DNA from: Candidatus Poribacteria bacterium
GTDB taxonomy: Bacteria > Poribacteria > WGA-4E > WGA-3G
Direction: 5' to 3'
Length of the DNA: 64,000 nucleotides
Assembly (NCBI GenBank): GCA_964291315.2
Contig: OZ219753.1
Span: forward strand, 1,344,001 to 1,408,000
This document shows, piece by piece, positions 1-19,689 of the stretch. The stretch's first letter is position 1; each line of letters begins with the position of its first letter. A program made the position numbers and the translations under genes. The notes beneath the pieces were generated by a model that worked only from the letters and a program-made list of their open reading frames with translations, did not search any database and was not told the origin of the DNA.

Positions 1-295
1 CAAATGATGTCAATAAGCGAGTGATAACCAGTAAGCTCCTGATGTGTTTGCCGACATGGATGACACCGATGCGCCCACGCTTGTGCTTCGTCAGCACATA
101 CGCTTGCATCAGCACCCCTAAACCCGAGGAATCTAAACGATGTGCATGTGATAAATCTATCAAGATCCGAGGCGCATCGTAGGCGCTCACCTCTGGTAAT
201 ATCGCAGTCCGTAGCTCCGAGACACGCTCACCTATTATCTTGCCACGGGGCTCAACTATAACAACCCCTGCTTTATGACGAACCTCTGTTGACAT
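1..295 (-). CDS. STAS-domain anti-sigma factor antagonist (3' end outside window)
   Basis: Not in ORF track; manual translation from ATG 295 gives MSTEVRHKAGVVIVEPRGKIIG...ILIDLSHAHRLDSSGLGVL...; DSSGLG phospho-Ser motif; AGGAG RBS upstream. Confidence 0.8.
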   Translation of the reverse strand, partial: MSTEVRHKAGVVIVEPRGKIIGERVSELRTAILPEVSAYDAPRILIDLSHAHRLDSSGLGVLMQAYVLTKHKRGRIGVIHVGKHIRSLLVITRLLTSF

Positions 296-673
296 GACTC
301 TTCTCCTTCTTCGCAAACGCTACACATCTTCCAGCGAAACGTTCACAGTGCAAGCAAATGGAAATAGCTTTCAAATACTTCTTACAGAGAACAACATAAC
401 ACACAGGTTGCCCTCTTAATAGGTATAGATACATCTCGGAGAAAAAAGTTTGTTTTTTTTTATTTTTTTGTTCGCAGCAGAGGAAGATGAAGGGGATCGC
501 CCAAAAACGTTCACTCTTAACGCACAAGCGGTATGCGTTTTTCGGCGGTTCTTGTGACACTGCAACGGGGTCATATCAGTCTGGTTTGCTGTTATACCGG
601 ATTGTATAACATGTGTGGTCGTAGATTAGACTCTTCAGCGCAAGTATGTGGTGTACGTTCGGGTGTATCTAGT

Positions 674-1843
674 TCATAGTGCGGAGAGCTCTGGTAGCTC
701 TACCCACTTGCGGGTTTGGCAAGATTCCATGCCTTTTTCTGCTAATTGCACGCCCTTCGCGCCTGCAAGGAGGGTCCACGGAAACGGTTCGTCAGCCACG
801 ATATGTCGAAGGAACAGCTCCCACTGTGCTCTAAATGCGTTCTCATAGGCTTCCTGTTCTGGTATTTTGAGCCATCCATCGAAGAATTGAATCGGTTGCT
901 CTATGTCAGGATTCCAGACGGGACGTGGGGTGCCGGAAAGCGGTTGGATCCAACAATCCCTCAAGCCTGCAACAGCGGAGCCGTTCAAACCGTCTACGTG
1001 TAGAGTCAGCAGATCGTCCCGCCGAACCCTGACCGCCCAAGATGAGTTAAAGTGTGCAATGATGCCGTTTTTCAATTCAAACGTTGCATAGGCGGCATCT
1101 TCAGCTGTGCAGGTGTAAGGTTTGCCTTCCTCATCCCATCTTTCTGGCAGATGCGTCGCAGCGATACAGGAAACGGAGTTGACTGCCCCGAATAGGTGGT
1201 CGATGACGTATCGCCAGTGACTGAACATGTCGAGAATAATACCGCCTCCGTCTTGGGCACGGTAGTTCCAGGAGGGGCGCTGCGTGGGAATGGCATCGCC
1301 TCGGAAAACCCAATAGCCGAACTCACCTCGCACTGCGAGAATCTCTCCGAAAAAGTCAGCATCTATCAGGCGTTTCAATTTCTGAATGCCGGGCAGCCAG
1401 AGCTTATCCTGAACGACACCGTTCTTGAGTCCGGCTTTCGCTGCTTGTTCATAGAGACTATAAGCGTCATCGGTAGTGGTAGCAGTCGGTTTTTCACAAT
1501 AGATGTGTTTGCCAGCGCGTATTGCGGCTTGGACTGCCTCGACCCGGCGTGAGGTAACTTGTGCGTCGAAATAGACAGCGTAAGAATCATCAGCGAGGGC
1601 GGTATCGAGATCCGTGCTCCACTTCTCAACACCGGTAGTTGCAGCTAATCTCTCAAGCTTCTCTGCACTCCTACCGACGAGAAACGGTTCGGGCATAATA
1701 ACGCTGCCATCCCCGATCGGAATGCCCCCGTCTTCTGCAATTGCCAATATAGATCGGATAAGATGCTGGTTTGTTCCCATCCGGCCGGTCACACCGTTCA
1801 TGATGATACCGACGCGGTGTGTCTGCTGGGTATGATTCGCCAT
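674..1843 (-). CDS. Gfo/Idh/MocA family NAD(P)-dependent oxidoreductase
   Basis: GVTGRMG Rossmann motif, KHIYCEKP motif, GGGIILD. Confidence 0.85.
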   Translation of the reverse strand: MANHTQQTHRVGIIMNGVTGRMGTNQHLIRSILAIAEDGGIPIGDGSVIMPEPFLVGRSAEKLERLAATTGVEKWSTDLDTALADDSYAVYFDAQVTSRRVEAVQAAIRAGKHIYCEKPTATTTDDAYSLYEQAAKAGLKNGVVQDKLWLPGIQKLKRLIDADFFGEILAVRGEFGYWVFRGDAIPTQRPSWNYRAQDGGGIILDMFSHWRYVIDHLFGAVNSVSCIAATHLPERWDEEGKPYTCTAEDAAYATFELKNGIIAHFNSSWAVRVRRDDLLTLHVDGLNGSAVAGLRDCWIQPLSGTPRPVWNPDIEQPIQFFDGWLKIPEQEAYENAFRAQWELFLRHIVADEPFPWTLLAGAKGVQLAEKGMESCQTRKWVELPELSAL

Positions 1844-1857
1844 ATATAGTCCTTTGG

Positions 1858-2301
1858 TTAAGGTTTGTCAGTGCATTGCGGAGCTGCGCCCGCTGGCAGG
1901 GGCGGTGCGTCAACGCCGGCCTTCGGGAGAGTGCCAGCGAGTTCCTGTTTCCAGTGAGCTACATCGCCCGCGGGACCGTAGCAGTAGACCATATGCATCG
2001 GCGTGTCGCTGGTATTTGTCAATTGATGGAAACTCCAAGACGGGATAAATACAGTCTGCCCCGCCGAGATGGTTTGACGTTCCTCGCCGAGACACATTTC
2101 GCCCTCACCTTCAACGATGAAGTAGATCTCTTCTTGTTCATGGTTGTGCCATGGCACTTGTCCACCGTTCGGTTCTAAGACGACAAACCCGAGACAGAAT
2201 TCATCTATCTGGATCGGAGAGGCACCACCGACGAGATTTCTGGTGAGTCTACGGGCCGGATAGGTTCGCCCATCCATTTCGTTTATGTCTGCGATTAGCA
2301 T
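1858..2301 (-). CDS. Cupin domain protein
   Basis: PWHNHEQEEIYFIVEGEG and FIPSWSFHQL cupin motifs. Confidence 0.85.
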   Translation of the reverse strand: MLIADINEMDGRTYPARRLTRNLVGGASPIQIDEFCLGFVVLEPNGGQVPWHNHEQEEIYFIVEGEGEMCLGEERQTISAGQTVFIPSWSFHQLTNTSDTPMHMVYCYGPAGDVAHWKQELAGTLPKAGVDAPPLPAGAAPQCTDKP

Positions 2302-2351
2302 GTCTATTGTCCTTTCAAGGAAGCTGTCTTTTTTTCGAGAGCGGATTTATC

Positions 2352-2394
2352 TATTATATAGGCGTGCTTTGCCGTCATGCACGCCTATATAATA
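2352..2394. terminator. Perfect 16-bp inverted repeat downstream of ppdK (terminator or mRNA-stabilising hairpin)
   Basis: TATTATATAGGCGTGC (2352-2367) / GCACGCCTATATAATA (2379-2394), 11-nt loop; no clear U-tract. Confidence 0.55.
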
Positions 2395-2414
2395 ACAAGA
2401 CACGTCCGTTTACA

Positions 2415-5048
2415 CTAACCCTCATTTTCAATGACAGCTTGTGCTGCGGCGAGTCGTGCAATCGGCACACGGAACGGCGAGCACGATACGTAATCGAAGT
2501 CTAAGCCGTGGCAGAACTTCACAGAATTCGGCTCCCCGCCATGTTCACCACAGATACCGAGTTTGAGATCGGGCCGTGTTGCACGCCCTTTTTCAGAACC
2601 GATTTGCAAAAGACTGCCAACACCGTCCTGGTCGAGTACCTGGAACGGGTCATATTCAAGAATACCGTTTCTGACGTAGGTATCAAGAAATTTCACTGCG
2701 TCATCACGACTCATGCCGAATGTCGTCTGGGTGAGATCATTGGTGCCGTATGAGAAGAATTCGGCCTCGGCAGCGATTTTGTCAGCCGTGAGTGCTGCAC
2801 GTGGTAGTTCAATCATCGTGCCGATAAGATACTCGACGCGCGTGTTGGTCTGTTTAAACACAGTTTCTGCTGTTTCAACAACAATCTTGCGCTGTAAAGA
2901 TAATTCGTTGATGTGACCGACAAGTGGAATCATAATCTCTGGTAAGACGGGGATCCCCCGTTTTGAGACCTCGACAGCGGCTTCAAAGATGCCCCGGGCT
3001 TGCATCTCGGTTATCTCTGGATAGACGATACCGAGTCTACATCCACGATGCCCAAGCATCGGATTAAACTCATGCAGTTCTTCAACACGCCCCCGCAGTT
3101 TTTCTGGTTCCACATCGATGCGAGCAGCCAATTCAAGGATCTCAGCCTCGCTTTTCGGCAGGAATTCATGGAGCGGTGGATCAAGCGTGCGAATCGTGAC
3201 CGGGTAACCCGCCATCGCCTCGAAAATACCGATGAAGTCTGAGCGCTGATGTGGGAGCAATTTTGTCAATGCTTGCTGGCGTTCTTCTATATCATCAGCA
3301 AGTATCATCTCACGCACAGCATCAATCCCCGTGCCGAAGAACATATGTTCGGTGCGACAGAGACCGATCCCTTCCGCGCCAAATTGCCTAGCATTTTTCG
3401 CATCTTCAGGCGTATCGGCGTTCGTGCGAATGCCTAAGGTTCGGATTTCATCCGCCCATTCCATGAGAGTTCCGAATTGACCACTCAGCTCAGGCTGGAT
3501 AAGCGCGACCTTTCCCTCGAGAACATCCCCCGTAGATCCGTTGAGCGTGATGAAATCACCTTCAGTGTAGCGTTTCCCCTCAGCGTAAAATTCTCGTGCT
3601 TTTTCATTAATGAACAGAGTAGAGCATCCTGCCACACAGCACTTACCCATCCCGCGGGCGACGACCGCAGCGTGGCTTGTCATGCCTCCGCGGGCAGTGA
3701 GGATCCCCTCTGCGGCATCCATGCCGCCGATGTCCTCTGGTGATGTTTCCGTACGAACGAGAATAACCTTTTCCCCTTTGGCCGCGAGTTCTTCAGCGTG
3801 GAGGGCAGTGAAAACAACTTTGCCAACAGCAGCACCCGGGGAGGCAGGCAAACCTTGTGCGATCACTTCAACGTTAGCCTCCGGGTCAACGCTCGGATGC
3901 AGCAGCTGATCGAGATCGTTGGCCGGGACGCGCGTTAAAGCCGTCCGCTTATCGATTAAACGTTCCTCAGCCATCTCAACAGCGATGCGAACAGCGGCTT
4001 GACCGGTACGTTTCCCGTTACGGGTCTGGAGCATGTAGAGTTTGCCGTCTTGAATCGTAAATTCTACATCTTGCATGTCGCGATAGTGCATCTCAAGATT
4101 TAAGCCGATCTCGACCAATTCTTCATGCACATCGGGCAAGATGTTTTTCAATTCAGCGATGGGGAGCGGTGTACGGATGCCGGCGACCACATCTTCGCCT
4201 TGGGCATTCATGAGGAATTCTCCATAGAACTGGTTTGCCCCAGTTGACGGGTTCCGGGTGAAGGCTACTCCTGTCCCAGAACTTCCGCCCATATTTCCGA
4301 ATACCATCGCTTGGACGTTAACAGCGGTACGCCCGAGCTCCTCGGAAATATCGTTGAGCCGACGGTAGGTAATAGCCCGCTGGTTTCCAGAAGATTCAAA
4401 AACAGCATCTCGTGCCATGTCTAGCTGCTGTCGAGGTTCATCAGGAAAATCATCGCCTGTGTGCTGTCTAACAATGTTCTTAAACTCTTGGACGAGTTCC
4501 ACTAAATCATGGGCTTCTAATTCAGTATCTAACGTAACGCCCTTAGTCTTTTTCTTTTCTTCGAGTAAATGCTCAAATTCATCGTGATCGACGTTAAGCA
4601 CAACATTTCCAAACATCTGGACGAAGCGCCGGTAGGCATCATAAGCGAAACGTTTGTTTTCGGATTTAGCGATCAGCCCTTTAACTGCATCATCATTTAA
4701 ACCGAGGTTGAGAATTGTATCCATCATACCGGGCATCGAGACAGCAGCCCCAGAACGCACAGAAAGGAGGAGTGGGTTTTCGGTATCACCGAATTTTGAA
4801 CCGAGGGCGGCCTCTAATTTCGCTAAGTTCTCGTCAATCTGTTCGTCGAGCCCAGCGGGGTACTGTTTGTCATTTTCGTAGTATAATTTACAGACCTCAG
4901 TGGAGATAGTGAAGCCGGGCGGAACAGGGATACCGAGATTGCTCATCTCCGCAAGATTTGCTCCTTTCCCGCCGAGGAGCGACCGCATTGTAGCGTCGCC
5001 TTCGCTCTCACTACCTCCAAAGAAGTAGACATACTTTGGTTGTGGCAT
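2415..5048 (-). CDS. ppdK: Pyruvate, phosphate dikinase
   Basis: LLGGKGANLAEM, SVRSGA, GGMTSHAAVVARG phospho-His motif, GLCRTEHMF, SYGTNDLTQ; AGGAGG RBS. Confidence 0.97.
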   Translation of the reverse strand: MPQPKYVYFFGGSESEGDATMRSLLGGKGANLAEMSNLGIPVPPGFTISTEVCKLYYENDKQYPAGLDEQIDENLAKLEAALGSKFGDTENPLLLSVRSGAAVSMPGMMDTILNLGLNDDAVKGLIAKSENKRFAYDAYRRFVQMFGNVVLNVDHDEFEHLLEEKKKTKGVTLDTELEAHDLVELVQEFKNIVRQHTGDDFPDEPRQQLDMARDAVFESSGNQRAITYRRLNDISEELGRTAVNVQAMVFGNMGGSSGTGVAFTRNPSTGANQFYGEFLMNAQGEDVVAGIRTPLPIAELKNILPDVHEELVEIGLNLEMHYRDMQDVEFTIQDGKLYMLQTRNGKRTGQAAVRIAVEMAEERLIDKRTALTRVPANDLDQLLHPSVDPEANVEVIAQGLPASPGAAVGKVVFTALHAEELAAKGEKVILVRTETSPEDIGGMDAAEGILTARGGMTSHAAVVARGMGKCCVAGCSTLFINEKAREFYAEGKRYTEGDFITLNGSTGDVLEGKVALIQPELSGQFGTLMEWADEIRTLGIRTNADTPEDAKNARQFGAEGIGLCRTEHMFFGTGIDAVREMILADDIEERQQALTKLLPHQRSDFIGIFEAMAGYPVTIRTLDPPLHEFLPKSEAEILELAARIDVEPEKLRGRVEELHEFNPMLGHRGCRLGIVYPEITEMQARGIFEAAVEVSKRGIPVLPEIMIPLVGHINELSLQRKIVVETAETVFKQTNTRVEYLIGTMIELPRAALTADKIAAEAEFFSYGTNDLTQTTFGMSRDDAVKFLDTYVRNGILEYDPFQVLDQDGVGSLLQIGSEKGRATRPDLKLGICGEHGGEPNSVKFCHGLDFDYVSCSPFRVPIARLAAAQAVIENEG

Positions 5049-5090
5049 CAAAAGCCTCCTATGATTGGTTATTAGTGTTGTATTGTATCG

Positions 5091-5167
5091 TCATCGGCAT
5101 TCAGTAGACGATGGCAGCGGTTTTTATCGTTTTCACCTGCCACAAGATCTGCTCTACTGAACGCTGG
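5091..5167. repeat. Intergenic palindromic element (heptamer-armed family)
   Basis: TTCAGTAGA (5100-5108)/TCTACTGAA (5153-5161) outer stem and TGGCAG/CTGCCA inner stem. Confidence 0.5.
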
Positions 5168-5188
5168 GGTTATTTCGTTGACAACTCT

Positions 5189-6547
5189 TTAAATTGAGTA
5201 AATTGTACGGCTTGCTTCGTCAAATTCGGGTTTAAAAGGATCCGTTGAAAGATAAAGAATCTGGTATGGCTCATAAAGTTGAATATAACTCCAATTCACC
5301 CCGCACAGCACTTTCCCTTGGTTTACTTTTTTGATGAATTTGCCTCTAAACTTGGCTCTCGTGCGTTCAGGCGGGAAATTTTCAGCACGCCGAATTTGCT
5401 CGTCTCCGACAATCCGTTCAATCTCGCCCCGATTTTCGAGCGCATAGTAAAGACTTTCTTGCTGCCGTACGTTATGGTATTTTAAATCCAAGTGTTTGAC
5501 TTGCGGAGCGTCCCAATCAAAACCGCGTCTTGTGAGATATGTCTGTAACCACTTCCACTTAATCACCCAATCCAATTCGCGATCCAGCTGCGTTGGATCA
5601 CTTTCTAAACAGGTGAGGACATACTCCCATCGCGCCATAATTTGTGTTGTCGTTGCATCAGATTCGGCTTGTTCGAGGTAGCGTTTTGCACACTCTAAAT
5701 ACTGCCATTGCAGCTGAACAGCCGAGACTCGCTTTCCGTTTTGAAGTTCAATGAGGTGCTTGCAGGTAATGTCATTAGAAATATCGCGTATAGCTCTAAC
5801 GGGGTTCCGAAGGGCGAAACGTTGTTCAATGAAATTGTCTTCAATCATACGGAGGATAATGCCGGTGGTTCCGACTTTCAAAAAAGTGGAAAATTCGGAC
5901 ATGTTTGAATCTCCCACGATAACGTGTAAGCGCCTATATTTCTCCCGATCCGCATGCGGTTCATCGCGTGTGTTGATAATTCCGCGTGCGGTTGTTGTGC
6001 CGATAGAGATTTCTTCCCGGATGTGTTCAGCCCGCTGCGAGATGGCGTAATAACCTTGATGCCTCGGTTTGATTTTCCCCCCGCCTGTGAAGACCTGCCG
6101 CGTCACAAAGAATGGAATCAGCTGTGCTGCGATCTGTCGAAAATCGACATGACGCTCCATCAAATAGTTTTCATGGCATCCGTATGTATTTCCGGGGGTA
6201 TCCAAGTTGTTCTTAAAAATGGATATCCTGCCGAAGAATCCATCATTGCGCATGCGTCTTTCAGCTGTTGTTGCAAGGCGCGTAATGATACGCTCACCTG
6301 CCTTATCGTGAGCAACCAGCTCAGCAACGTCATCACACTCTGGGGTAGCATATTCTGGATGGCATCCTATATCTTGATAAAACCTTGCACCGTTTTCAAG
6401 GAAAACATCAGGATACATTCTCCCCGCCACGATTTCGCGGAAGAGATACATCACAACGTTCTGGACAGTGAGTGTTTTTCTACGCGGCGCGTCCGGGGTC
6501 CAGATGATCCCGAATTCAGTTTCCAGTCCGTAAATCCTACGATTCAT
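5189..6547 (-). CDS. pafA: Pup--protein ligase
   Basis: RRIYGLETEFG, DIGCHPEYATPECD, NTRDEPHAD, RRLHVIVGDSNMSE; lacks Dop loop; last gene of Pup operon. Confidence 0.93.
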   Translation of the reverse strand: MNRRIYGLETEFGIIWTPDAPRRKTLTVQNVVMYLFREIVAGRMYPDVFLENGARFYQDIGCHPEYATPECDDVAELVAHDKAGERIITRLATTAERRMRNDGFFGRISIFKNNLDTPGNTYGCHENYLMERHVDFRQIAAQLIPFFVTRQVFTGGGKIKPRHQGYYAISQRAEHIREEISIGTTTARGIINTRDEPHADREKYRRLHVIVGDSNMSEFSTFLKVGTTGIILRMIEDNFIEQRFALRNPVRAIRDISNDITCKHLIELQNGKRVSAVQLQWQYLECAKRYLEQAESDATTTQIMARWEYVLTCLESDPTQLDRELDWVIKWKWLQTYLTRRGFDWDAPQVKHLDLKYHNVRQQESLYYALENRGEIERIVGDEQIRRAENFPPERTRAKFRGKFIKKVNQGKVLCGVNWSYIQLYEPYQILYLSTDPFKPEFDEASRTIYSI

Positions 6548-6631
6548 CAATTACCTCTCGATAAATACCTTTGCCATCATGAACTTGGCTGTATTTGCAA
6601 ACAAACGGTGTCACATTGAATAGTTGGCAGA

Positions 6632-7357
6632 TCATGAGAGAAGATATGTGATCTCTTCAGTCGAAAGGCGACGGAATCTCCGGCGTTCAGCGGTCTGCTC
6701 AAGACAAGCAACCTCTATGGTTTGGGGGGTGATTTGATGCCCGGCTTCGAGCTCTGTCTCTGTTTCAACACTCTGAAAGGTTTCTGTTACGAGTCGGAGT
6801 GCTGCCGCCATTTCTAGTCCATCCGTATAATCTTGTTCCAGCCTTTCTGTTATCGCAGTAGTACGCCCGCCAATAACGGCATACTTTTCTTCTTCCGAGT
6901 AGATACCATCGAACGCAATATGGTAAATCTGAGTGTGTTGTCGCCGGCTTGTTCCTTCGTTACCGGCCATCCCGATTTCACACACAAGGAGTTCGATCTC
7001 CAAAGGTTTCGCATCCCATGCTTGGGCAACTGCCCCCATATGTTGTGAGTAGAGGTTGGTTAGCCATTTTGCAGTGACATCCTCTCGGTAGTACCGGAAC
7101 CCTTTGATTTCAGATTCTCGGATACCGGCGACGCGTAATGCTTCATATTCAGCAATCCGCCCTGCCGCTGCAAGAGCGATTCGGTCATAAATTTCGGAAA
7201 TCTTATAAATGGTTTTGCGCGGGTTCTCGGCAACCATGAGGAGACCCCCTCGGTATTCTAAGACGACTACCTCTTTTGCCTGTGCAATGCCGCGTCGGAC
7301 AAAATCTTCTTTATCCTGACGAATTTGATCGGGGGAAACATAATAAGGTGTGGACAT
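6632..7357 (-). CDS. prcA: 20S proteasome alpha subunit
   Basis: MSTPYYVSPDQ N-terminus, KISEIYDRIALAAAG, RRRFRRL; actinobacterial-type PrcA features. Confidence 0.93.
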   Translation of the reverse strand: MSTPYYVSPDQIRQDKEDFVRRGIAQAKEVVVLEYRGGLLMVAENPRKTIYKISEIYDRIALAAAGRIAEYEALRVAGIRESEIKGFRYYREDVTAKWLTNLYSQHMGAVAQAWDAKPLEIELLVCEIGMAGNEGTSRRQHTQIYHIAFDGIYSEEEKYAVIGGRTTAITERLEQDYTDGLEMAAALRLVTETFQSVETETELEAGHQITPQTIEVACLEQTAERRRFRRLSTEEITYLLS

Positions 7358-7433
7358 GTCTGTGTTTTTTGTGTTCCGAGGAGTACGAAGACGACATTAG
7401 TGCCAGTTGACTATAGGTGCATTGAACTCAGCA

Positions 7434-8228
7434 CTATAGACGGGCTATCAACCTTCTATAGAGCTCTTCAACAGTCGTCTCAGGAATGTCGGTCACTCCT
7501 TCTTTAGTGACGGTGTAAAACGTAGGGAAGATTTTCCGAATGAGATCAGGGCCACCTGTTGCTATATCCTCATCAGCAGCATCCCAGAGGGCTTCTGCGG
7601 CGATGTCAAGTGTTTCCGGATAGGCGATTCCTGGCTTATACCGTTTTTTAAGCGTCGCGCGTGCATCTTTGCCACCGGAGCCGATAGCGTAATAGTCCGC
7701 TTCCTCATAACGACCACCGACGGCATCATATTTAAATATCCTACCGCGTTGTTGTTTTAAGTCAAAACCGGCAAAGAGCGGCAAGACGACTAATCCCTGC
7801 ATAGCGAGCCCGAGGTTTGATCGTACTAAGTGGGCAAGGAAGTTTGCCTGCCCTTCCAAGCTCAGACGGATACCTTCCGTTTTTTCATAAAATTCAACTT
7901 CAACTTGGAAGAGCTTTGCCATCTCAATGCAAGGGCCGGCGGCTCCCGCAACAGCGATTGCAGAGTGCCGATCCACCGGATAGACTTTCTGGATCCGCCG
8001 CTCACCAACTTGATGCCCTTCTGTTGCCTGCCGGTCACCAGCCATAATAACCCCAGCATTATAGACCACAGCAAGCACTGTTGTCCCTTCATAATATTGG
8101 GCGGAGGACTCCGTTATAACGGAATTGGAACCAGTATTAGACGAATGGAGCCCTGTTAACAATTCAGGATGGCGACGTTTGAGGATTTCAAAGAAGTTAG
8201 CGGTGCCATAGTCGCTGAGATCAAGCAC
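7434..8228 (-). CDS. prcB: 20S proteasome beta subunit (48-aa propeptide)
   Basis: G|TTVLAV processing site giving Thr1, with Asp17 and Lys33 in register; GSGG; DIATGG. Confidence 0.94.
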   Translation of the reverse strand: MLDLSDYGTANFFEILKRRHPELLTGLHSSNTGSNSVITESSAQYYEGTTVLAVVYNAGVIMAGDRQATEGHQVGERRIQKVYPVDRHSAIAVAGAAGPCIEMAKLFQVEVEFYEKTEGIRLSLEGQANFLAHLVRSNLGLAMQGLVVLPLFAGFDLKQQRGRIFKYDAVGGRYEEADYYAIGSGGKDARATLKKRYKPGIAYPETLDIAAEALWDAADEDIATGGPDLIRKIFPTFYTVTKEGVTDIPETTVEELYRRLIARL

Positions 8229-8230
8229 TC

Positions 8231-8428
8231 CTATTGCCCTCCCCGCTGGATATAGTTTTCGACGAATTCCTGTGAATTTTCTTCCAAGATGTCATCAATT
8301 TCATCAAGGAGCGCATCTAAGTTTTCAACAAATTCCTCGTCCATTTCGCCCTGCTCAACGTTCGGCTGAATCTCTTCGGTTCCATCAACCTGCCGATCAA
8401 GGTGTTCCTGTTGTTTTTCAGTAGACAT
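8231..8428 (-). CDS. pup: Prokaryotic ubiquitin-like protein Pup (C-terminal GGQ)
   Basis: 65 aa, acidic, LDALLDEIDDILEENSQEFVENYIQRGGQ; AGGAG RBS; between dop and prcB. Confidence 0.95.
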   Translation of the reverse strand: MSTEKQQEHLDRQVDGTEEIQPNVEQGEMDEEFVENLDALLDEIDDILEENSQEFVENYIQRGGQ

Positions 8429-8505
8429 TGTTTTCTCCTTTTATACGTATCGGTATCTAATTAAAGCGTTTGTAGCGGTTGTGTTTTGTTCCGCTGCTAC
8501 AATTG

Positions 8506-10053
8506 CTACTGACTGTTGACCCCTGACGACTGCTTTGAAGCATCGCCTCGGATATCCCTAACGAGTTCCTCTGCTGTACAAGTATTCAGCAACTCGCCAA
8601 CGATCTGTTGTGTACCGAAGTGGGGGCGATCCATTATAATTTTGTCAAGCCCCCCTGACTTACTGATAAAAATCATTGAGTTCCAGCTTGCACTATAAAT
8701 GCTCTCTGGAAATTTCCGTAAACAGGTTCCGCGAAAGTATGCCCGCGTATCTATAGGTGGATAATGCATCGCATGCACAACTTCTTCGTGGCTCAGTAAA
8801 CGTTTAACATGACCATTCTTCGCTAGTCTCATATAGAGTCCTCTGTCTGGACGAAGATCATGGTATTGCAAGTCTAACATCTGGAGGTGTGAATCGTCCC
8901 ATTGATATCCATGGCGCCTCCGATAGGCATCCAGTAACTTTTTTTTGATAACCCAATCGAGATAGTGCCCTAATCGGCTCGGGTCAACCGCTAAGTTATC
9001 AAGCACGTACTGCCATTTTTCAAGTACATCTTCGATCACGGGGGTCCGTTCTTCAGCTGTGAGATGTTGCCGGGCCAGCTCAAGGTATGCGCGTTGCACC
9101 TCTATCGGGGTCCACGCCCTTCCGTCTTGGAGTTCTATCGGGTTTTTGCAGGAAAGATCGCGCGAGATGCTTTTTATCGCCGCGACCGGTTCCTTCAAAC
9201 TAAATTGATCTTCGACAACCCCCTTTTCAATCAGCTGGAGTGCAATCATAGTAATACCAGCCTTGAGATAGATGCTGAACTCCGACATGTTAGAATCACC
9301 AACGATGACATGCAACCGGCGATAGTGTTTGTCATCTGCGTGTGGTTCATCGCGCGTGTTAATGAGCGGCCGATTTACCATAGTACTCAGCCCCACTTCT
9401 TGTTCAAAGAAGTCGGCACGCTGAGAAATTTGATAATCTATGGTGTCAGCCGTATTTTCGGCACCGACTTTGCCGCTCCCGGTAATAATAATGCGAGTGA
9501 CAAGGAACGGGATTAAGCCATCAATAATGTCCTCAAACGGAATTTTTCGGGACATGAGGTAGTTCTCATGTGACCCGTAACTATGCCCCTTGTAATCGGT
9601 ATTGTTTTTATAGATGATAATCTCTTGATTGTCAAGCAGCAAACGTCCAGCTGCGGCTCTACTGACCTCTAATATTAATTCTCCTGCTTTTTCATACAGG
9701 AGCAGGTCGCGCGGGTTACTACATTCAGGCGTGCAATATTCAGGATGCGCGTGGTCCACATAATAACGTCCACCGTTTATCAAGATGTCGTTGACAGTGC
9801 TACCTGTGTCGGGCTCCGCAGGAATCCGATCCGCCTCGGCTTGAAACCCGCGGGCATCCATTAACGGACTCTCTTGTTCATAATCCCACGTGACAGAAGC
9901 ACCAGGGCTCGGCAGATCCGCGACGCAGCTTTTATACGCATTGACTACCAAAGTAGAGGCAGCGACGGGGTCTTGCTCACGCGCGTTTTTGACTGAGATA
10001 CCATACTCAGTCTCTGTTCCCATTATTATAGGAGTTCGCATTTTTTTCGCCAT
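8506..10053 (-). CDS. dop: Pup deamidase/depupylase Dop
   Basis: IMGTETEYG, Dop loop WDYEQESPLMDARG, YVDHAHPEY, DTRAYFRG; start placed at MAKKMR (ORF track extends to 10128). Confidence 0.93.
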   Translation of the reverse strand: MAKKMRTPIIMGTETEYGISVKNAREQDPVAASTLVVNAYKSCVADLPSPGASVTWDYEQESPLMDARGFQAEADRIPAEPDTGSTVNDILINGGRYYVDHAHPEYCTPECSNPRDLLLYEKAGELILEVSRAAAGRLLLDNQEIIIYKNNTDYKGHSYGSHENYLMSRKIPFEDIIDGLIPFLVTRIIITGSGKVGAENTADTIDYQISQRADFFEQEVGLSTMVNRPLINTRDEPHADDKHYRRLHVIVGDSNMSEFSIYLKAGITMIALQLIEKGVVEDQFSLKEPVAAIKSISRDLSCKNPIELQDGRAWTPIEVQRAYLELARQHLTAEERTPVIEDVLEKWQYVLDNLAVDPSRLGHYLDWVIKKKLLDAYRRRHGYQWDDSHLQMLDLQYHDLRPDRGLYMRLAKNGHVKRLLSHEEVVHAMHYPPIDTRAYFRGTCLRKFPESIYSASWNSMIFISKSGGLDKIIMDRPHFGTQQIVGELLNTCTAEELVRDIRGDASKQSSGVNSQ

Positions 10054-10140
10054 CGATAATTCATTGCGGCGGTTGCTGACGTTTGCACCTATCAAGACCG
10101 TTTTAGCTTCCAGCAACCGACAGTCCATAGCTGAAAGCCA

Positions 10141-11940
10141 TCAAAGAAAAGTGCCCCCGCGGGTTACACGGACGCTCTGTTTTTTCTCTTGTGTAGGTTC
10201 GTTAATCAAGGCACGGATATTGACAATCTTTTCGCCTTTACGACCAGAAATTTTCGCCCAATCGTCGGGATTTGTCGTGTTCGGCAGGTCCTCGTTTTCT
10301 TGATACTCTTCTTGGATAGCTCCTTTCAGATCATCAAGGCGCATCCCTTTTTCCAACCCATCAGAACCGATAAACCGCTTGATCGCTGTTTTCTTTGCGC
10401 GGGACACGATGTTCTCAATCATCGCACCACTGACAAAATCCTTGAAAAAGAGGGTCTCGCGTTCTCCGCGGGCGTAAGTTACTTCAATAAATCGATTCTT
10501 CTCAGTGGTTGCATACATTTCGTCTACCGCTTCAGTAATAAAGTGTTTTGCGATTGCCTCAGGATCCCCCTCGAATTGCTGGCGGGTATCCTCAGAAAAG
10601 GGCAGCTCTGGTGTTAGGTATATGCCGAAGATGTCTTTAGCACCCTCCGGGCTGGGGCGGTCGATTTTAATCTTAATGTCTAGTCTGCCGGGCCGTAAAA
10701 CCGCTGGATCAAGCAGATCTTGACGGTTGCTAGCTCCAATGACAATTACGTCTCGTAGGTTCTCTATGCCATCAATCTCGGCGAGAAACTGCGGCACAAG
10801 GGTTGACTCCATATCCGATGAGATTCCCATACCTCTGGATCGGAACAGTGAGTCCATTTCGTCAAAGAAGATAATAACCGGGAAACCTTCTCTGGACTTA
10901 TCTCGTGCCTTCTGAAATATCTCTCGAATTTTACGTTCAGTTTCACCAACGTACTTATTGAGGAGCTCGGGGCCCTTGATATTAATAAAATAGCCGCGCA
11001 CTTCGTCCCGGCCGGTTTGCTTGCGAACCCGCTCCGCAATCCCGCTGGCAACCGCACGAGCTATCAAAGTTTTGCCACACCCCGGGGGGCCGTAGAGAAG
11101 CACACCTTTAGGGGGCGAGAGGTTGAATTCTTCGTACTCCTTCGGATACAGATACGGCATCTCAATAGCATCGCGAATTGCCTCTATCTGTGTATCAAGA
11201 CCTCCGATGTCAGCGTATCCGATGTCTGGTACCTCTTCGAGAAAGAGATCTTCAACTTCATGTTTGGGAAGTTTCTCCATGAGCATACTTGTGGTATGGT
11301 TGAGAAGCACGTTATCCCCAGTTTTCAAAACGACCTCTTTGAGAGCTGCAGCGACTCTAACGACACGCTCTTCGTCCATGCGTAAACTAACGATAGCAAG
11401 TTCATCGTCAATCCGTTCTTTAATTTTCACGACCTCGCCATGCCTCTCGGCAGCCTTAACGCCGACAACATTCATCCCGCTGTTGACGATAACTTCCTGT
11501 CCGACCGAGATATCTTGTGCCTTGAGTCCCGGATCAAGATTGACCCGCCATTTTCTGCCGGTAATGTCGACATCAACGGTGCCGTCTTCGTTTGCACCCA
11601 GGAAAACCGCATAATTATTTGGCGGTGCGCTCAGCTGTTCAACCTTTTCCCTGAGTATCTGGAGTTTTTCTTTGGCTTCTTGTAGGGTCCCCGTCAACTT
11701 CTTGTTTCGACGATGCGCCGTCATCAACTCACGCTGCATCTCATAGAGTCGACTTTCAAGATCTTTAACATAGGCTGCACGTTGCTGCTGCCGCATGCCT
11801 TCGAGCTCATCTTGAAGCATATCAACCGTCCCTTGGAGCGTACGAATCTGCTGTTGATACCAGACAGCATCAAATGTATCTTGCTCTTCAAAGGAATCCT
11901 TGGAATTTCCTCTTTTGATAGCCATACGTGAAATTCTCAC
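10141..11940 (-). CDS. arc: Proteasome-associated AAA+ ATPase ARC/Mpa
   Basis: N-terminal coiled coil, OB region, Walker A GPPGCGKT, KGPELLNKYVGETE, Walker B IIFFDEMD, NEDLPNTTNPDDWAKISG; start may be ATG 11925. Confidence 0.95.
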   Translation of the reverse strand: MRISRMAIKRGNSKDSFEEQDTFDAVWYQQQIRTLQGTVDMLQDELEGMRQQQRAAYVKDLESRLYEMQRELMTAHRRNKKLTGTLQEAKEKLQILREKVEQLSAPPNNYAVFLGANEDGTVDVDITGRKWRVNLDPGLKAQDISVGQEVIVNSGMNVVGVKAAERHGEVVKIKERIDDELAIVSLRMDEERVVRVAAALKEVVLKTGDNVLLNHTTSMLMEKLPKHEVEDLFLEEVPDIGYADIGGLDTQIEAIRDAIEMPYLYPKEYEEFNLSPPKGVLLYGPPGCGKTLIARAVASGIAERVRKQTGRDEVRGYFINIKGPELLNKYVGETERKIREIFQKARDKSREGFPVIIFFDEMDSLFRSRGMGISSDMESTLVPQFLAEIDGIENLRDVIVIGASNRQDLLDPAVLRPGRLDIKIKIDRPSPEGAKDIFGIYLTPELPFSEDTRQQFEGDPEAIAKHFITEAVDEMYATTEKNRFIEVTYARGERETLFFKDFVSGAMIENIVSRAKKTAIKRFIGSDGLEKGMRLDDLKGAIQEEYQENEDLPNTTNPDDWAKISGRKGEKIVNIRALINEPTQEKKQSVRVTRGGTFL

Positions 11941-12047
11941 TTTCCAAAACGTATTTTTGACCTCACCGGTGACAGCGAAGATCGGATAGACAAATAAATA
12001 GCCTCAATCGGGCTTCAGGCTTTACGCTAATCATCTCTATTCATTAG

Positions 12048-12076
12048 AGTATAGCACACCGAAAATTTTGTGTCAA
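12048..12076 (-). promoter_or_regulatory. Sigma70 promoter of the Pup-proteasome operon
   Basis: Minus strand TTGACA-17 nt-TATACT with TG extended -10. Confidence 0.75.
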
Positions 12077-12207
12077 GAAAAAATTACAGACTCCGTTTCA
12101 TCAACCCGCTCAGGCGATTTCATATACCTGAAAATTGGAAACTTTAAACGAAAAACGGGCGGTATCAGAAATTCGTGCCGTAAAGGTCCAGCACTTCACG
12201 CTATAGC

Positions 12208-13251
12208 CTACCCTTCGTCTTCCGTGTCTTCTTCAGGAATCGCCCCCGCTGTTGGGGGGAGTGACAGATTCAGCGATTCTCGTATCTTGGCTTCTATCTC
12301 TGCCATAATCTCCGGATTATCTTCGAGATATTTCTTAGAGTTCGTCCTGCCTTGACCGATGCGTTCTCCGTTGTAAGCGAACCAAGAGCCGCTCTTCTGA
12401 ATAAATTCTCTGTCAACAGCAATATCTAAGAGATTGCCCTCTTTGGATATCCCCTTCCCGAAGGTCAAATCGTACTCTGTCTCTTTAAAAGGCGGGGCAA
12501 CTTTATTCTTTACGACCTTGATCCGGACGCTACTCCCAAGGACGTCAGTACCCTCTTTGATCTGTTTACCGCGGCGGAGTTCTAAACGAACAGAGGCATG
12601 AAACTTAAGGGCGAGTCCACCCGGCGTCGTATCCGGGTTACCGAACATGATTCCAATTTTTTGGCGGATCTGGTTGGTAAAAATGACACACGTCCGAGAT
12701 TTATTGGTGACCCCCGACAATTTACGAAGTGCCTTAGACATCAAGCGAGGCAGCAGTCCAACGTGTGCATCGCCCATTTCGCCCTCAATTTCAGCTTGCG
12801 GGGTTAAGGCTGCCACAGAGTCAACAACAACGACATCAATAGCCCCACTGCGAATGAGAGTCTCAACAATTTCCAAGGCTTGTTCCCCGGCATCAGGCTG
12901 CGCGATCAGCAAGTTTTCCATGTTGACCCCGATACTTCGAGCGTACGTCGTATCGAGGGCGTGCTCAACATCAATGAAGACAGCTGTGCCCCCCAATTTT
13001 TGGGCTTCAGCCACAATATGGAGCGCCAAAGTGGTTTTCCCTGTGCCTTCATGTCCAAAAATTTCGGTGATCCTGCCGCGCGGGACTCCCCCGACACCGA
13101 GCGCGAGGTCAAGTGAAAGAGCCCCTGTTGGAATTGCCTCAACAGGCACCACCTCGTCACTAGCGAGGCGCATAATGGAACCCTTACCAAATTCACGTTC
13201 TACTTGTGAGATCGCTTGGTTAATCGCTTGCTGCTTTTGTTCATCTTGCAT
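12208..13251 (-). CDS. recA: Recombinase A
   Basis: [10 protein letters not shown], Walker [39 protein letters not shown]. Confidence 0.98.
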
Positions 13252-13311
13252 GTTTTAGCGGTTTCTCCTTTATGGCACCTACTGCCAAAAATAGTTTTTT
13301 GTATTCTGGAA

Positions 13312-13896
13312 TTACGTAGAAAAATGACATAAGTTCAACGGCGTATAGACCGCCCCGTTCGGATGCAGGCGACTCTGCATGAGTGTCATTTCGTTCACAT
13401 TCATGAGAGCCCCGTCAATTGTATCGTATCGTTGTAGCATGTCTCTCAACGGTTTCAGATTCATCGGAGCTCGAAGCCGGGCAACTGTAAGGTGTGGATG
13501 AAAACGTTTGTCTATAGCGAAACCGAGATGCCTTAGCTCAAGATTTACGACACTTGCAAGACGTGAGACGGTCGGCGCCCCATGTTTGACACCTACCCAC
13601 AGCACACGCGGACGACTCAAATTTGGAAACGCCCCGATCTTACCGAATTCAATCGAAAAGGAGGATTGGACAGCTGCCAAGCTTTGCATGACTTTACCGA
13701 CACCTTCAACTGCTGGCGCGTGAACATCGCCCAAAAACTTTAGCGTGAGATGAAAGTTTCCAAATTTTGTCCATGAAGCTTTACGAATCTCCGGGTTAAG
13801 GCAGGTTTGCATGTGTTGCAGCGACTTTTGTATCGATTGCGGTATCTCAATAGCCACAAAGCAGCGAACAATCCCACGTTTAGCCGCCATGATCAT
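13312..13896 (-). CDS. thpR: RNA 2',3'-cyclic phosphodiesterase (2H family)
   Basis: RCFVAI N-terminus, two HxT motifs (FHLTL, PHLTV), PRVLWVG; usual position before recA. Confidence 0.9.
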   Translation of the reverse strand: MIMAAKRGIVRCFVAIEIPQSIQKSLQHMQTCLNPEIRKASWTKFGNFHLTLKFLGDVHAPAVEGVGKVMQSLAAVQSSFSIEFGKIGAFPNLSRPRVLWVGVKHGAPTVSRLASVVNLELRHLGFAIDKRFHPHLTVARLRAPMNLKPLRDMLQRYDTIDGALMNVNEMTLMQSRLHPNGAVYTPLNLCHFST

Positions 13897-14513
13897 GCCC
13901 CTGTTTCCGGATCGTAACGTCTCAAATGCGCCAAGGCAAACAAAAATTTGCGGTTGTTGACGAGAAATTCCACGCCGGATGCAACAGTGAGAATTAGGGG
14001 TAAAAGCATCATAAAAAAGATGGGGCCCCGGTTCCGCACAATTAATGCCGAATTCAACTCGCTCTGAAAAGCGAGCAGAGCTAAACCCGCAGCCGCTACA
14101 ATCAGCTGCGAAACCATCTTATACTTCCCCCATTGGCTTGCCGAAACAACTCGTCCATATTTTGTCATAAAAACGACTCGCAAAATTGTAACGAGGACTT
14201 CACGCCCCATGATGATGACAACCATCCACATCGGAATAAGCCCATCTTCAACATGTTTAAAGAAAGCGAGACAGAGTAAAGTAGCACCAATGAGCAGCTT
14301 GTCAGCAAGCGGATCCATAAATTTTCCGAAACTAGTCACGCCTTGCCTTCGCGCGATTCTGCCATCAAGATTGTCTGTTACTGCCGCAATAAGAAAAATA
14401 ATGAGCGCTGGAACCATCATATCTGTCTGAAAACAGAATATGAATGGCGGTATCAAGAATAAACGTAACAGCGTCAGAAGATTTGCTAACCGCAAAAGGA
14501 CACTGAAATTCAT
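13893..14513 (-). CDS. pgsA: CDP-diacylglycerol--glycerol-3-phosphate 3-phosphatidyltransferase
   Basis: ANLLTLLR, DNLDGRIAR...GKFMDPLADK CDP-alcohol phosphotransferase motif. Confidence 0.88.
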   Translation of the reverse strand: MNFSVLLRLANLLTLLRLFLIPPFIFCFQTDMMVPALIIFLIAAVTDNLDGRIARRQGVTSFGKFMDPLADKLLIGATLLCLAFFKHVEDGLIPMWMVVIIMGREVLVTILRVVFMTKYGRVVSASQWGKYKMVSQLIVAAAGLALLAFQSELNSALIVRNRGPIFFMMLLPLILTVASGVEFLVNNRKFLFALAHLRRYDPETGA

Positions 14514-14555
14514 ATTATATTGGAAAAATGTTAGAGATACCCTAATCGGAGCTCT

Positions 14556-15302
14556 CTATTTTTTTTCGGAAAGATCGATCACCTCAGCATCTTCAGGCAC
14601 AACAAACCTGAAAAGATCCCGTGCCAACTGTTTATCTCTTTCAATCTGTGTGAGCTTGACAATGACGCTCTGACGGGTTCCGTCCTCAAATCGGGTTTCG
14701 TAGCCAAATTGCACAGGTAGCCATTCACCCGTCTTTACCCAAATTTGCAGCGTTTCCTGGGCGTTCGTACTTACCATATGAAGTTTAGGCTGCAGCTCGA
14801 TGTGATGGATCCCTTTCGGGTTTGCAAATTCGTCGGGAATCAACGCCATATCATAGTTCTGTTGAACATTCTCAAGCGAGGCCCCGATACCGGGAAACAA
14901 CTCTCGCCGTTCCGGATTGTTCAACTTCATCTTATTGACTTGGTTGAGTATAGGTGTATAGGTCCAACCGTATTCCCCATCCAAAACAGTGAGTTGGACA
15001 ACTTTTGAGGTATCTTTCCGATCGACGTATTCTTTGCGGAGCAGATTTGGTCTACGGAATATAAAGCGCCCACGGGCGACGCTCTTCTTATTCGCGAAGA
15101 GCGTGGTTTCCTCAAAGTTCGCACTAAAATTTTCAGACTTCTCATAAGCCGTTTTGAAATTATGAAAAATTTCATCGACAGTTTGAGGATATACACGGTT
15201 GGCAGATAGTAGGAAGAGGAGGATAACTGCTACCAGCCACTTTTCAAAATGTGAGGGTTTGCGCAAAATTCTGCCTCTACCTCTATAGGTCCGCCGAATC
15301 AT
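14556..15302 (-). CDS. LolA-like outer-membrane lipoprotein carrier protein
   Basis: Signal/TM segment, FSANFEET, GRFIFRRPNLLRKEY, C-terminal FRFVVPEDAEVID. Confidence 0.75.
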   Translation of the reverse strand: MIRRTYRGRGRILRKPSHFEKWLVAVILLFLLSANRVYPQTVDEIFHNFKTAYEKSENFSANFEETTLFANKKSVARGRFIFRRPNLLRKEYVDRKDTSKVVQLTVLDGEYGWTYTPILNQVNKMKLNNPERRELFPGIGASLENVQQNYDMALIPDEFANPKGIHHIELQPKLHMVSTNAQETLQIWVKTGEWLPVQFGYETRFEDGTRQSVIVKLTQIERDKQLARDLFRFVVPEDAEVIDLSEKK

Positions 15303-15365
15303 TTCATCACCCTTTCCTATTTGACCAAATTGTGTGTTGGAAAACTAATTTCATACTATTATAGT

Positions 15366-15395
15366 ATTATAGCACAATCTATTTTCATATGTCAA
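15366..15395 (-). promoter_or_regulatory. Sigma70 promoter for lolA-pgsA-thpR-recA
   Basis: Minus strand TTGACA-18 nt-TATAAT with TG extended -10. Confidence 0.65.
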
Positions 15396-15401
15396 TCTTT
15401 T

Positions 15402-15779
15402 TCAATTAGCCAAGCGCGTCCAATCGGTTAGGATAACTTCAAGACCCTCGGGGTCGTCTAATGCACAAAAAACGAGACGCTCTAATACTTGGGCAATAGA
15501 CTCATCGCGGAATATCGCCTGAAACCAGTTTGCAAAGCTCTTAATTGCCTCTGGAGATTCGGCAGATGCCCAGAAGACGACACGACAAAAATCGAGGCCT
15601 TCGTCCACCCGCTTGTCAGAAATCTGAACATTTTGCGGAAAATCCCGAAAAATCGGCAAAAGGTCCGCCACTAACATCACTAGGTCATGATTGAGATACG
15701 ATATCTCTGGCAGAATATCGAAATGGACAGCATATTTATGTAACGGTAAATCCTGGCGGATATCGCCTCGGTTTTGCAT
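15402..15779 (-). CDS. Hypothetical protein (125 aa)
   Basis: ATG with GGAG RBS, protein-like composition, fills the gap between lolA promoter and metH. Confidence 0.55.
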   Translation of the reverse strand: MQNRGDIRQDLPLHKYAVHFDILPEISYLNHDLVMLVADLLPIFRDFPQNVQISDKRVDEGLDFCRVVFWASAESPEAIKSFANWFQAIFRDESIAQVLERLVFCALDDPEGLEVILTDWTRLAN

Positions 15780-15799
15780 AGGTTTCTCCAGACTTTAAG

Positions 15800-15829
15800 T
15801 GGACAAAACGGTGTCCAACGTGGTATACT
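15800..15829 (+). promoter_or_regulatory. Putative metH promoter with overlapping palindrome
   Basis: TGGACA-18 nt-TATACT (TG extended -10); TGGACA-N6-TGTCCA palindrome at 15800-15817. Confidence 0.5.
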
Positions 15830-15912
15830 ATCTTGTAGCTTTAATGCATAGGCACTAGGACGTTTGGGCAATGTAGGCACGTGCATCTATCAAAGGACAC
15901 AATATATATTCT

Positions 15913-18900: not shown

Positions 18901-19584
18901 GTTGTCGGGCTTTTCCCAGCCAACGCGGTTAGCGAAGATACTGAGATTTACGCAGACAACGCACGAACAAAGGTGACCGCTACGGTGCACCACCTCCGTC
19001 AACAGACAGAACAACCTTTTATGAGACCCAACCTGAGCCTCGGTGATTTCATCGCCCCCAAGGCAACAGGCATTCAAGATTATATCGGGGCTTTTGCTCT
19101 AACAACTGGGAGCGGCGTCTCTGAGCTGTGTGCTGAATTTGAGCGGAAGCAGGACGATTATAACAGTATTATGACAAAGGCACTAGCAGACCGCCTGGCA
19201 GAGGCATTCGCGGAAAAGATACATCAACACGTCCGGACAACACTTTGGGGCTACATCCCAGATGAGGCACTGGATAACGCGGCTTTAATCGCCGAACGGT
19301 ATCGCGGAATTCGCCCCGCACCAGGCTACCCCGCCTGTCCCGACCACAATCAAAAACGGGTGTTGTTTGACTTGCTGAACGTTACAGAAAACACCGGGAT
19401 CGCTCTCACTGAAAACCTAGCGATGTTCCCAGCCGCATCTGTGAGTGGATGGTACTATTCCCACCCAGATGCCCGATATTTCAGCATTGCCAGAATTGGG
19501 GAAGATCAAGCCGCGAACTATGCAGAACGAATTGGAATGGACCTAGAGACAGCAAACCGGTGGCTTAAGCCGCTGCTGACATGA
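15913..19584 (+). CDS. metH: Cobalamin-dependent methionine synthase
   Basis: LDGAMGS, GGCCG Zn site, [17 protein letters not shown] cobalamin motif, [12 protein letters not shown]. Confidence 0.97.
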
Positions 19585-19689
19585 AAAAATTGCGCTTTTG
19601 ACAGATTGCCGTAGCGGCGAAGCCGCCGCGCAACTAATAGCTGGCTACGATACAAACAAAAACCGTTCCATCTTCTATAAAGAAACCTT

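Follow-up and report, generated by a model that had tools for sequence, protein, structure and literature searches.

Does a complete Pup-proteasome operon of the actinobacterial type, encountered in the genome of a diderm bacterium from a candidate phylum, encode a working system that belongs to its host lineage, and does that system act alone there? The question is posed by a stretch of 64,000 nucleotides from a Candidatus Poribacteria genome (GenBank assembly GCA_964291315.2, contig OZ219753.1, positions 1,344,001 to 1,408,000), to which, at its full length, we refer as the window. Its minus strand carries, between positions 5189 and 11940, genes for the proteasomal AAA+ ATPase Mpa (mpa, also called arc), the Pup deamidase/depupylase Dop, the ubiquitin-like tag Pup, the beta and alpha subunits of a 20S proteasome (PrcB and PrcA) and the Pup ligase PafA. 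To our knowledge, work on pupylation has been confined almost entirely to Actinobacteria. The sequence itself tells us which genes are present, in what order and whether intact, and also their motifs, their conservation and the host; on this footing we consider it highly probable that the operon specifies a working, actinobacterial-type Pup-proteasome system, kept by Poribacteria at least as far back as the ancestor of the host's class.

The six open reading frames (ORFs) lie head to tail in the order mpa-dop-pup-prcB-prcA-pafA, all co-oriented, with no stop codon or frameshift in any of them and with intergenic gaps of 2 to 81 nt (Table 1). Five of the six proteins reach the NCBIfam equivalog cut-off of their family, PafA falling 25 bits short, and the Pfam results are consistent with the NCBIfam calls for all six; open frames and family matches thus bear out the original prediction, made from the sequence alone, of six intact, co-oriented genes in this order. 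The catalytic residues listed in that prediction (PrcB Thr1, Asp17 and Lys33, the GxExE motifs of PafA and Dop, the Dop loop, Walker A and B) can likewise all be read in the translations. Mpa is composed of a coiled coil, two OB domains (OB_N and OB_C) and an AAA module with Walker A (GPPGCGKT) and Walker B (IIFFDEMD) motifs; it aligns to the solved Mpa 7px9_A with 582 bits and ends in GGTFL, and the tail pattern G-x-[YF]-[LF] is present in 17 of the 17 Poribacteria Mpa rows listed. Dop carries the GxExE motif as GTETE, together with the extra loop WDYEQESPLMDARGF, which has no counterpart in PafA and aligns to the loop of solved Dop (5lrt/4b0r, 485 bits). This alignment begins at residue 35, and dop translation may actually begin at the ATG that is codon 26 of the ORF. 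PafA has the motif as GLETE and lacks the Dop loop. Its best model is TIGR03686 (526.5 bits), 100 bits over the Dop model (425.1); it aligns to the solved PafA 4b0t from residue 2 (342 bits), and in phylogenetic trees it falls in the PafA part, adjoining a clade with named actinobacterial PafA. In PrcB a propeptide of 48 residues is followed by TTVLAV, with Thr1 at residue 49, the residue from which mature PrcB chains in the PDB align, and with Asp17 and Lys33 present. Pup ends in GGQ, as had been claimed, and its alignment to solved Pup chains runs to the last residue. The tag is acidic, with 21 Asp/Glu residues to 3 Lys/Arg and an isoelectric point (pI) of 4.05; it is matched only by Pfam Pup and NCBIfam pupylate_cterm, with no match to the models for UBact, another tag.

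The host, judged by its genes, is a diderm Candidatus Poribacteria and belongs neither to Actinobacteria nor to Nitrospirae. A PafA scan covering one genome per GTDB species confirmed 608 relatives, and the best 80 of these gave 79 distinct loci, on which the locus counts below are based. Seventy-seven of the 79 are titled Candidatus or uncultured Poribacteria and two 'uncultured bacterium', with identities of 68-94%. The host is taken to be diderm because the window's contig (contig 4) also encodes BamA (404 bits, cut-off 297) and LpxC (221 bits, cut-off 187), in addition to the LolA-like gene near the operon. The titles of the closest loci and these outer-membrane genes thus agree with the suggestion that the host is a diderm, possibly of Poribacteria, and speak against a placement in Actinobacteria or Nitrospirae. 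The genome measures 4.4 Mb and is 95.2% complete.

The operon is widely shared among the relatives of this host. All six genes, in the same order and on the same strand, were found in 73 of the 79 loci (tblastn, E<=1e-5); of the other six loci, four run off the end of a contig and two lacked a match for the short pup gene alone. With a laxer search a Pup ORF was detected in 78 loci, ending in GGQ in 62 and in GGE in 16. recA lies upstream of the operon in 58/79 loci and ppdK downstream in 61/79. A survey of 176 Poribacteria species genomes found the Pup_ligase family in 173, most often as four genes in a genome, and Pup in 167; the three genomes with neither (88-97% complete) belong to other families that are kin at the level of the phylum only. 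Closed, single-contig genomes, for example G143 and G045, are among those carrying the Pup operon. Across the relatives PafA identity drops in step with RecA identity. Pairwise ratios of nonsynonymous to synonymous substitution (dN/dS) with two relatives are 0.04-0.12 for the operon genes and 0.02-0.05 for recA and ppdK, all of them rough values, as dS is saturated and several pairs yield no estimate; the dN of PafA is the lowest of the six, 0.041 versus 0.079 for RecA in the same pair. By these sequence comparisons the operon is a selected, vertically kept, old resident and not a chimera or a recent import.

Table 1. Features of the Pup-proteasome locus and of the second, UBact-type locus of the same genome. 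Positions are those of the window unless a contig is named; scores are in bits, followed by the model cut-off.
Feature	Position	Strand	Details
pafA, Pup ligase	5189..6550	-	453 aa; PF03136 513.6; TIGR03686 526.5 vs 551.3
prcA, 20S alpha subunit	6632..7357	-	241 aa; TIGR03691 234.8 vs 139.05
prcB, 20S beta subunit	7434..8228	-	264 aa; TIGR03690 286.6 vs 191.9
pup, acidic tag	8231..8428	-	65 aa; TIGR03687 50.1 vs 41.45; PF05639 58.2 vs 27
dop, Pup deamidase/depupylase	8506..10128	-	540 aa; TIGR03688 570.4 vs 492.3
mpa/arc, proteasomal AAA+ ATPase	10141..11940	-	599 aa; TIGR03689 pup_AAA 702.5 vs 504.75
Promoter-like element, sigma-70-type	12048..12076	-	TTGACA-17-TATACT with upstream TG; ~108 nt upstream of mpa start
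ppdK	2415-5051		flank of operon, pafA side
recA	12208-13251		flank of operon, mpa side
UBact-type operon	contig C1:47775-56400 (locus L005:9128-16396)	-	outside the window

A promoter-like element stands ahead of mpa. Of 11 promoter-like sites detected in this region it is the strongest, agreeing with the consensus at 11 of 12 positions, and a TTGACA-16-18 nt-TA[TC]A[AC]T element recurs upstream of mpa in 53 of the 73 related loci having at least 400 nt upstream; we take this recurrence to support a real promoter. Of the claim of a consensus promoter, the presence of the TTGACA-17-TATACT element and its recurrence therefore stand, while the single match by itself lies within chance. Past recA the gene order continues with thpR, pgsA and the LolA-like gene. 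No pafBC or tat genes adjoin the operon, and the gene calls around it thus match the predicted neighbourhood of ppdK and recA without pafBC or tatAC. No Rfam family reached its gathering score in window positions 1-20000.

Beyond the phylum, a HMMER search with PafA over 1.84 billion representatives returned 6198 family members, and relatives were compared in a 183-row FastTree and in a 53-row IQ-TREE with a site-heterogeneous model. The representatives with organism names comprise PafA of Moduliflexus (50% identity), of Ilumatobacteraceae/Actinomycetota (46%) and of Nitrospinota, family members from Tectomicrobia (46%) and Dermatophilus, Dop of Entotheonellia and Acidimicrobiia, and proteins of the 'PafA2 family' from Gemmatimonadota, Latescibacterota and Armatimonadota. 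Poribacteria PafA forms a 12-row clade (SH-aLRT support 96) beside a 16-row clade (99) that includes all three named Actinomycetota rows, and in the IQ-TREE Poribacteria Dop and Entotheonellia Dop together are sister to Nonomuraea and Acidimicrobiia Dop with a support of 94. The same picture for both enzymes is seen in the 183-row tree. Identity to the proteins of Nonomuraea gerenzanensis is 52.6% for Mpa, 48.4% for Dop, 46.5% for PafA, 42.8% for PrcB, 38.7% for PrcA and 42.9% for Pup, and in public databases Dop and PafA are already annotated for further candidate phyla of diderms.

The Pup operon is not the only locus of its kind in this genome. The host holds four Pup_ligase genes, the second pair of which lies on contig 1 in a UBact-type operon with the same gene order as the Pup operon. 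This operon encodes an ATPase (Mpa2; TIGR03689, 435 bits, below the cut-off), a Dop-like enzyme (TIGR03688, 490.6 vs 492.3), a tag of 63 residues that ends in RTGE and is matched by NF033388 (69.2 vs 35) and PF20513 (64.2), a beta subunit with Thr1, Asp17 and Lys33, an alpha subunit and a PafA-like protein. Downstream it is followed by a gene for a TPR-containing HtrA-like protease, and upstream it is preceded by a YgjP-like gene and by type I restriction HsdR. Because a full UBact operon stands on another contig, the lineage has both Pup and UBact, not Pup instead of UBact. The assertion that the modifier is a true Pup and not UBact accordingly stands for the window's tag, which matches the Pup models and not the UBact models, and has to be qualified for the genome as a whole. 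UBact was found in 168 of the 176 phylum genomes at E<=0.01 (167 above the cut-off), and Pup and UBact occur together in 162; three genomes lack both, and save for these three, which lack everything, no Pup-less genome is also UBact-less. Since the closed, single-contig genomes G143 and G045 have both systems on one chromosome, binning cannot account for the pairing. Among genomes that are 90-96% complete, G062, G073, G005 and G006 appear to be without UBact and G132 without Pup. With two or three ligase-family matches each, against four in most genomes, these one-tag genomes (G062, 96% complete, has two matches, with Pup present and no UBact) may represent real losses of one system.

The two sets of proteins in the window's genome are distant homologues, with identities of 38.6% for Mpa, 41.3% for Dop, 39.1% for PafA, 35.9% for PrcB and 29.5% for PrcA between the window's proteins and their UBact-locus paralogues, and no similarity between Pup and UBact of this genome was detected by BLAST. 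UBact has 12 Asp/Glu to 18 Lys/Arg residues and a pI of 10.07, and Mpa2 ends in x-V-[IV] in five of the five Mpa2 sequences read. In the trees the UBact-type enzymes of Poribacteria group with proteins of Gemmatimonadota, Latescibacterota and Armatimonadota. Duplication of a whole operon within Poribacteria was considered as an origin of the pair and rejected, as the Nonomuraea proteins resemble the window's more than the in-genome paralogues do and the UBact-type enzymes group elsewhere. In the unrooted tree a split with support 95 places the UBact-type 'PafA' of Poribacteria, together with a Gemmatimonadota relative, on the side of Dop and not with the Pup-type PafA, a placement that is unsure given long branches and a root that is not known; because of this position it does not seem that ligase and deamidase were simply duplicated as a pair to give the two loci. 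When a complex of UBact with a doubled Mpa2 fragment (residues 50-230) was predicted from small custom alignments, it scored 0.15 (mark 0.32). Beyond both operons, a fifth match to the Proteasome family (PF00227) is present in a 180-aa open frame (G000:C1:415350-415865), the size of which suggests HslV.

Within one family of the same class both loci are split (L092-L099, from G012, G013, G014 and G016). There, mpa-dop-pup-prcB-prcA occurs without an adjacent pafA in three of the four Pup-type loci, the fourth, L098, having no detected prcA either, and UBact-prcB2-prcA2-pafA2 occurs without an adjacent ATPase or Dop-like gene in all four loci of the other type; each of these genomes still holds four ligase-family genes.

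We infer the chemistry, binding and degradation carried out by the window's Pup system by homology, with the characterised mycobacterial Pup-proteasome system as the mechanistic template. The operon would be transcribed as a single transcript from the conserved promoter upstream of mpa. Dop would deamidate the C-terminal Gln of Pup to Glu, and PafA, with ATP, would activate the gamma-carboxylate of Pup and link it to lysines of substrates. The coiled coils of the Mpa hexamer would then bind Pup and Mpa would unfold the substrate, its G-x-[YF]-[LF] tail docking on the PrcA/PrcB 20S particle in the manner known from the literature on the characterised system, so that Thr1 of PrcB could cut the chain; Dop would also take Pup off again. 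Alongside, a UBact-type system would run with its own ATPase, its two ligase-family enzymes and its own 20S genes.

Could the window's operon instead have reached this genome recently by horizontal transfer from Actinobacteria, or be actinobacterial DNA that an assembly or binning error placed here? Its gene set and order are actinobacterial, its proteins score above NCBIfam equivalog cut-offs, and the assembly consists of four contigs with an estimated contamination of 3.49%. We nevertheless regard such an origin as very improbable. The flanking recA, ppdK, pgsA, thpR and LolA-like genes are likewise arranged in most relatives, the operon is present in 167-173 of the 176 species genomes, including the single-contig G143 and G045, and PafA identity falls with RecA identity; the conserved gene order and the closed genomes also dispose of the chimeric assembly that the original prediction had raised. 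Moreover, the GC content of the operon (0.47-0.49) lies within that of the whole window (0.43-0.53), the best named actinobacterial match is 46.5% identical, and the Poribacteria clade stands outside the named Actinomycetota rows. The tree check thus placed Poribacteria PafA and Dop beside, not inside, the clades with named Actinomycetota, and the operon is provisionally not nested among named actinobacterial rows; we call this provisional because named rows are few, the genes single, the search short and the root not known. A decaying or silent relic, to which the sub-threshold score of PafA on its curated equivalog model might point, is extremely improbable in view of open frames with intact catalytic motifs, the low dN/dS ratios and low dN of PafA relative to RecA given above, and the conserved promoter element. 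Some points do weigh against a working, long-resident actinobacterial-type system. The TIGR03686 cut-off is missed by PafA here and in 21 of the 21 Poribacteria genomes tested, the best score being 535.2. No PAC2-type assembly chaperone (PF09754) was found in this 95.2%-complete genome, in a search whose control matched in five genomes. The Mpa tail in the host's genus has Phe where the two actinobacterial references, Nonomuraea and Tsukamurella, have Tyr (GQYL), and shuffled sequences give a mean of 9.1 promoter-like sites against the 11 seen, so that the element alone is not beyond chance. pafBC was noted as absent from the operon flanks, no search aimed at it having been made. Organism names were at hand for 11 of the ~150 representatives in the trees, most rows being nameless, and the trees are of single genes, drawn from a short search and rooted at the midpoint.

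A working resident Pup system leaves a further choice, between two pathways kept apart and one pool of parts. The contrasts in tag charge and ATPase tail between the Pup and UBact sets suggest, on sequence grounds, that tags and ATPases are matched to partners from their own set, and the two systems probably serve different substrate sets. That they form two insulated tag-and-destroy pathways, a pair of orthogonal ubiquitin-like codes passed on jointly from the time the class arose, is a reading which we hold tentatively, at somewhat less than even chances. The sets might instead share parts (ATPase, 20S particle or enzymes), or the Pup set might mainly regulate without degradation, proteasome-free tagging being known from corynebacteria. 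Homology extends over the whole of both loci, at 30-41% identity; the loci are split in one Poribacteria family, so co-location is not obligatory; and a few near-complete genomes, such as G062, seem to manage with one set. On indirect evidence we judge sharing or regulation unlikely, since both full sets are kept in 162 of the 176 genomes, the tags are oppositely charged (pI 4.05 versus 10.07) and lack detectable similarity, the ATPase tails differ (G-x-[YF]-[LF] in Mpa, x-V-[IV] in the five sequences of Mpa2), and each set has its own alpha subunit and its own beta subunit with Thr1, Asp17 and Lys33.

Further members of the PafA family stand beside the operon gene in some relatives. Among the closest representatives to the window's PafA are P0007 and P0012, in which a sigma factor of the extracytoplasmic function (ECF) type (Sigma70_r2 and r4_2) is fused to a full Pup_ligase domain, giving proteins of ~670-690 aa; P0283 is another such protein, and L102:1474-3522 (G056:C5) and L103 (G031:C1:5742790-5744811) are loci with such fusions. 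A search of the 176 genomes with P0007 found uninterrupted, near-full-length fusions in G056, G031 and G007, one in G006 that is matched from query residue 19, and broken or cut copies in G005, G008 and G055; these are extra genes beside the operon PafA, and the same search found none in the window's genome. The G056 fusion keeps GxExE and the catalytic Asp context, and reads CLPEY and NLRDDETYAD where the window's PafA has CHPEY and NTRDEPHAD. Judged by titles, we found no paper on an ECF sigma-Pup_ligase fusion. Another fusion, P0121 (868 aa, metagenomic), joins a PafA-family ligase to C-terminal TPR and HEAT repeats, and in some genomes of one genus a tandem PafA pair ends the Pup operon (G025:C1:4517611-4520498, also G023 and G024).

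If the operon is what we take it to be, an actinobacterial-type Pup system would be stably maintained under selection in a diderm phylum of uncultured sponge associates, in which regulated proteolysis may matter for surviving host-derived stress during symbiosis. The pairing also bears on whether UBact is distinct from Pup. Should the two codes be insulated, UBact would be a system with a function of its own, more than a diverged form of Pup, and these genomes would offer a natural test bed for the specificity of tag, ligase, unfoldase and protease, with matched parts (two tags, ligases, depupylases, unfoldases and 20S particles) from one cytoplasm. Judged by titles and abstracts, no paper was found that links Poribacteria to the proteasome, pupylation or ubiquitin-like tagging, nor was one found on a Pup operon in this lineage, as the original prediction had supposed. 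The 2017 paper that named UBact reportedly listed Poribacteria among the UBact-bearing candidate divisions; if so, one half of the pairing, UBact, has been published before, and what is added here is Pup.

Set against the Pup system of Mycobacterium tuberculosis, the window's operon has the same six components and gene order, the Dop loop and a Thr1 beta subunit with propeptide, and it shares with the actinobacterial system the C-terminal half and GGQ end of Pup and the domain set of Mpa. It differs in its host, a diderm of a candidate phylum; in the absence of adjacent pafBC and tat genes and of a detected PAC2 homologue; in the Mpa tail, which reads GTFL where the actinobacterial references have GQYL; and in sequence, with identities to Nonomuraea of 39-53%. 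In Nonomuraea, the one actinobacterial genome read, other DNA parts mpa, dop-pup and prcBA and pafA lies far away, whereas the window's six genes, pafA included, are contiguous. The nearest named relatives of the window's enzymes are in other candidate diderm groups, Moduliflexus for PafA (50%) and Entotheonellia for Dop. As for UBact systems (PF20513, NF033388), the second locus of this genome belongs among them, with a basic tag and an R-[TS]-G-[EQ] end, and the window's tag shows neither of these and does not match the models.

Sporadic Pup systems outside Actinobacteria were described in 2008 from verrucomicrobia, nitrospirae, deltaproteobacteria and planctomycetes, in which one gene neighbourhood brings together a tag ending in G[EQ], paralogues of the PafA family and, as a rule, proteasome genes (PMC2588565). 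As far as the passages in question describe them, these systems resemble the window's in tag end, PafA paralogues, clustered proteasome genes and diderm lineage, and Poribacteria are not among the lineages that those passages name. A precedent for two sets in one genome is Leptospirillum ferrooxidans (Nitrospirae), for which a 2012 account describes a pair of complete pupylation loci, L1 and L2, alike in gene context but far apart in sequence, the second-set tag lacking a GGE end (PMC3511204). Poribacteria are like it in their two full sets per genome, a likeness drawn from the published description and not from sequence comparison. They are unlike it in two respects, as far as that account goes: transfer from Acidimicrobiales is proposed for the Leptospirillum enzymes (PMC3511204), whereas the Poribacteria clade stands beside the actinobacterial clade in our trees, and the Poribacteria pairing is shown to span a whole class (162/176 genomes). 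Taken together, a Pup operon in a diderm candidate phylum is of a known kind, non-actinobacterial Pup having been in print since 2008; what the Poribacteria add to it is the near-universal pairing with UBact, the tight clustering of all six genes, and two systems that differ in the charge of their tags and the tails of their ATPases.

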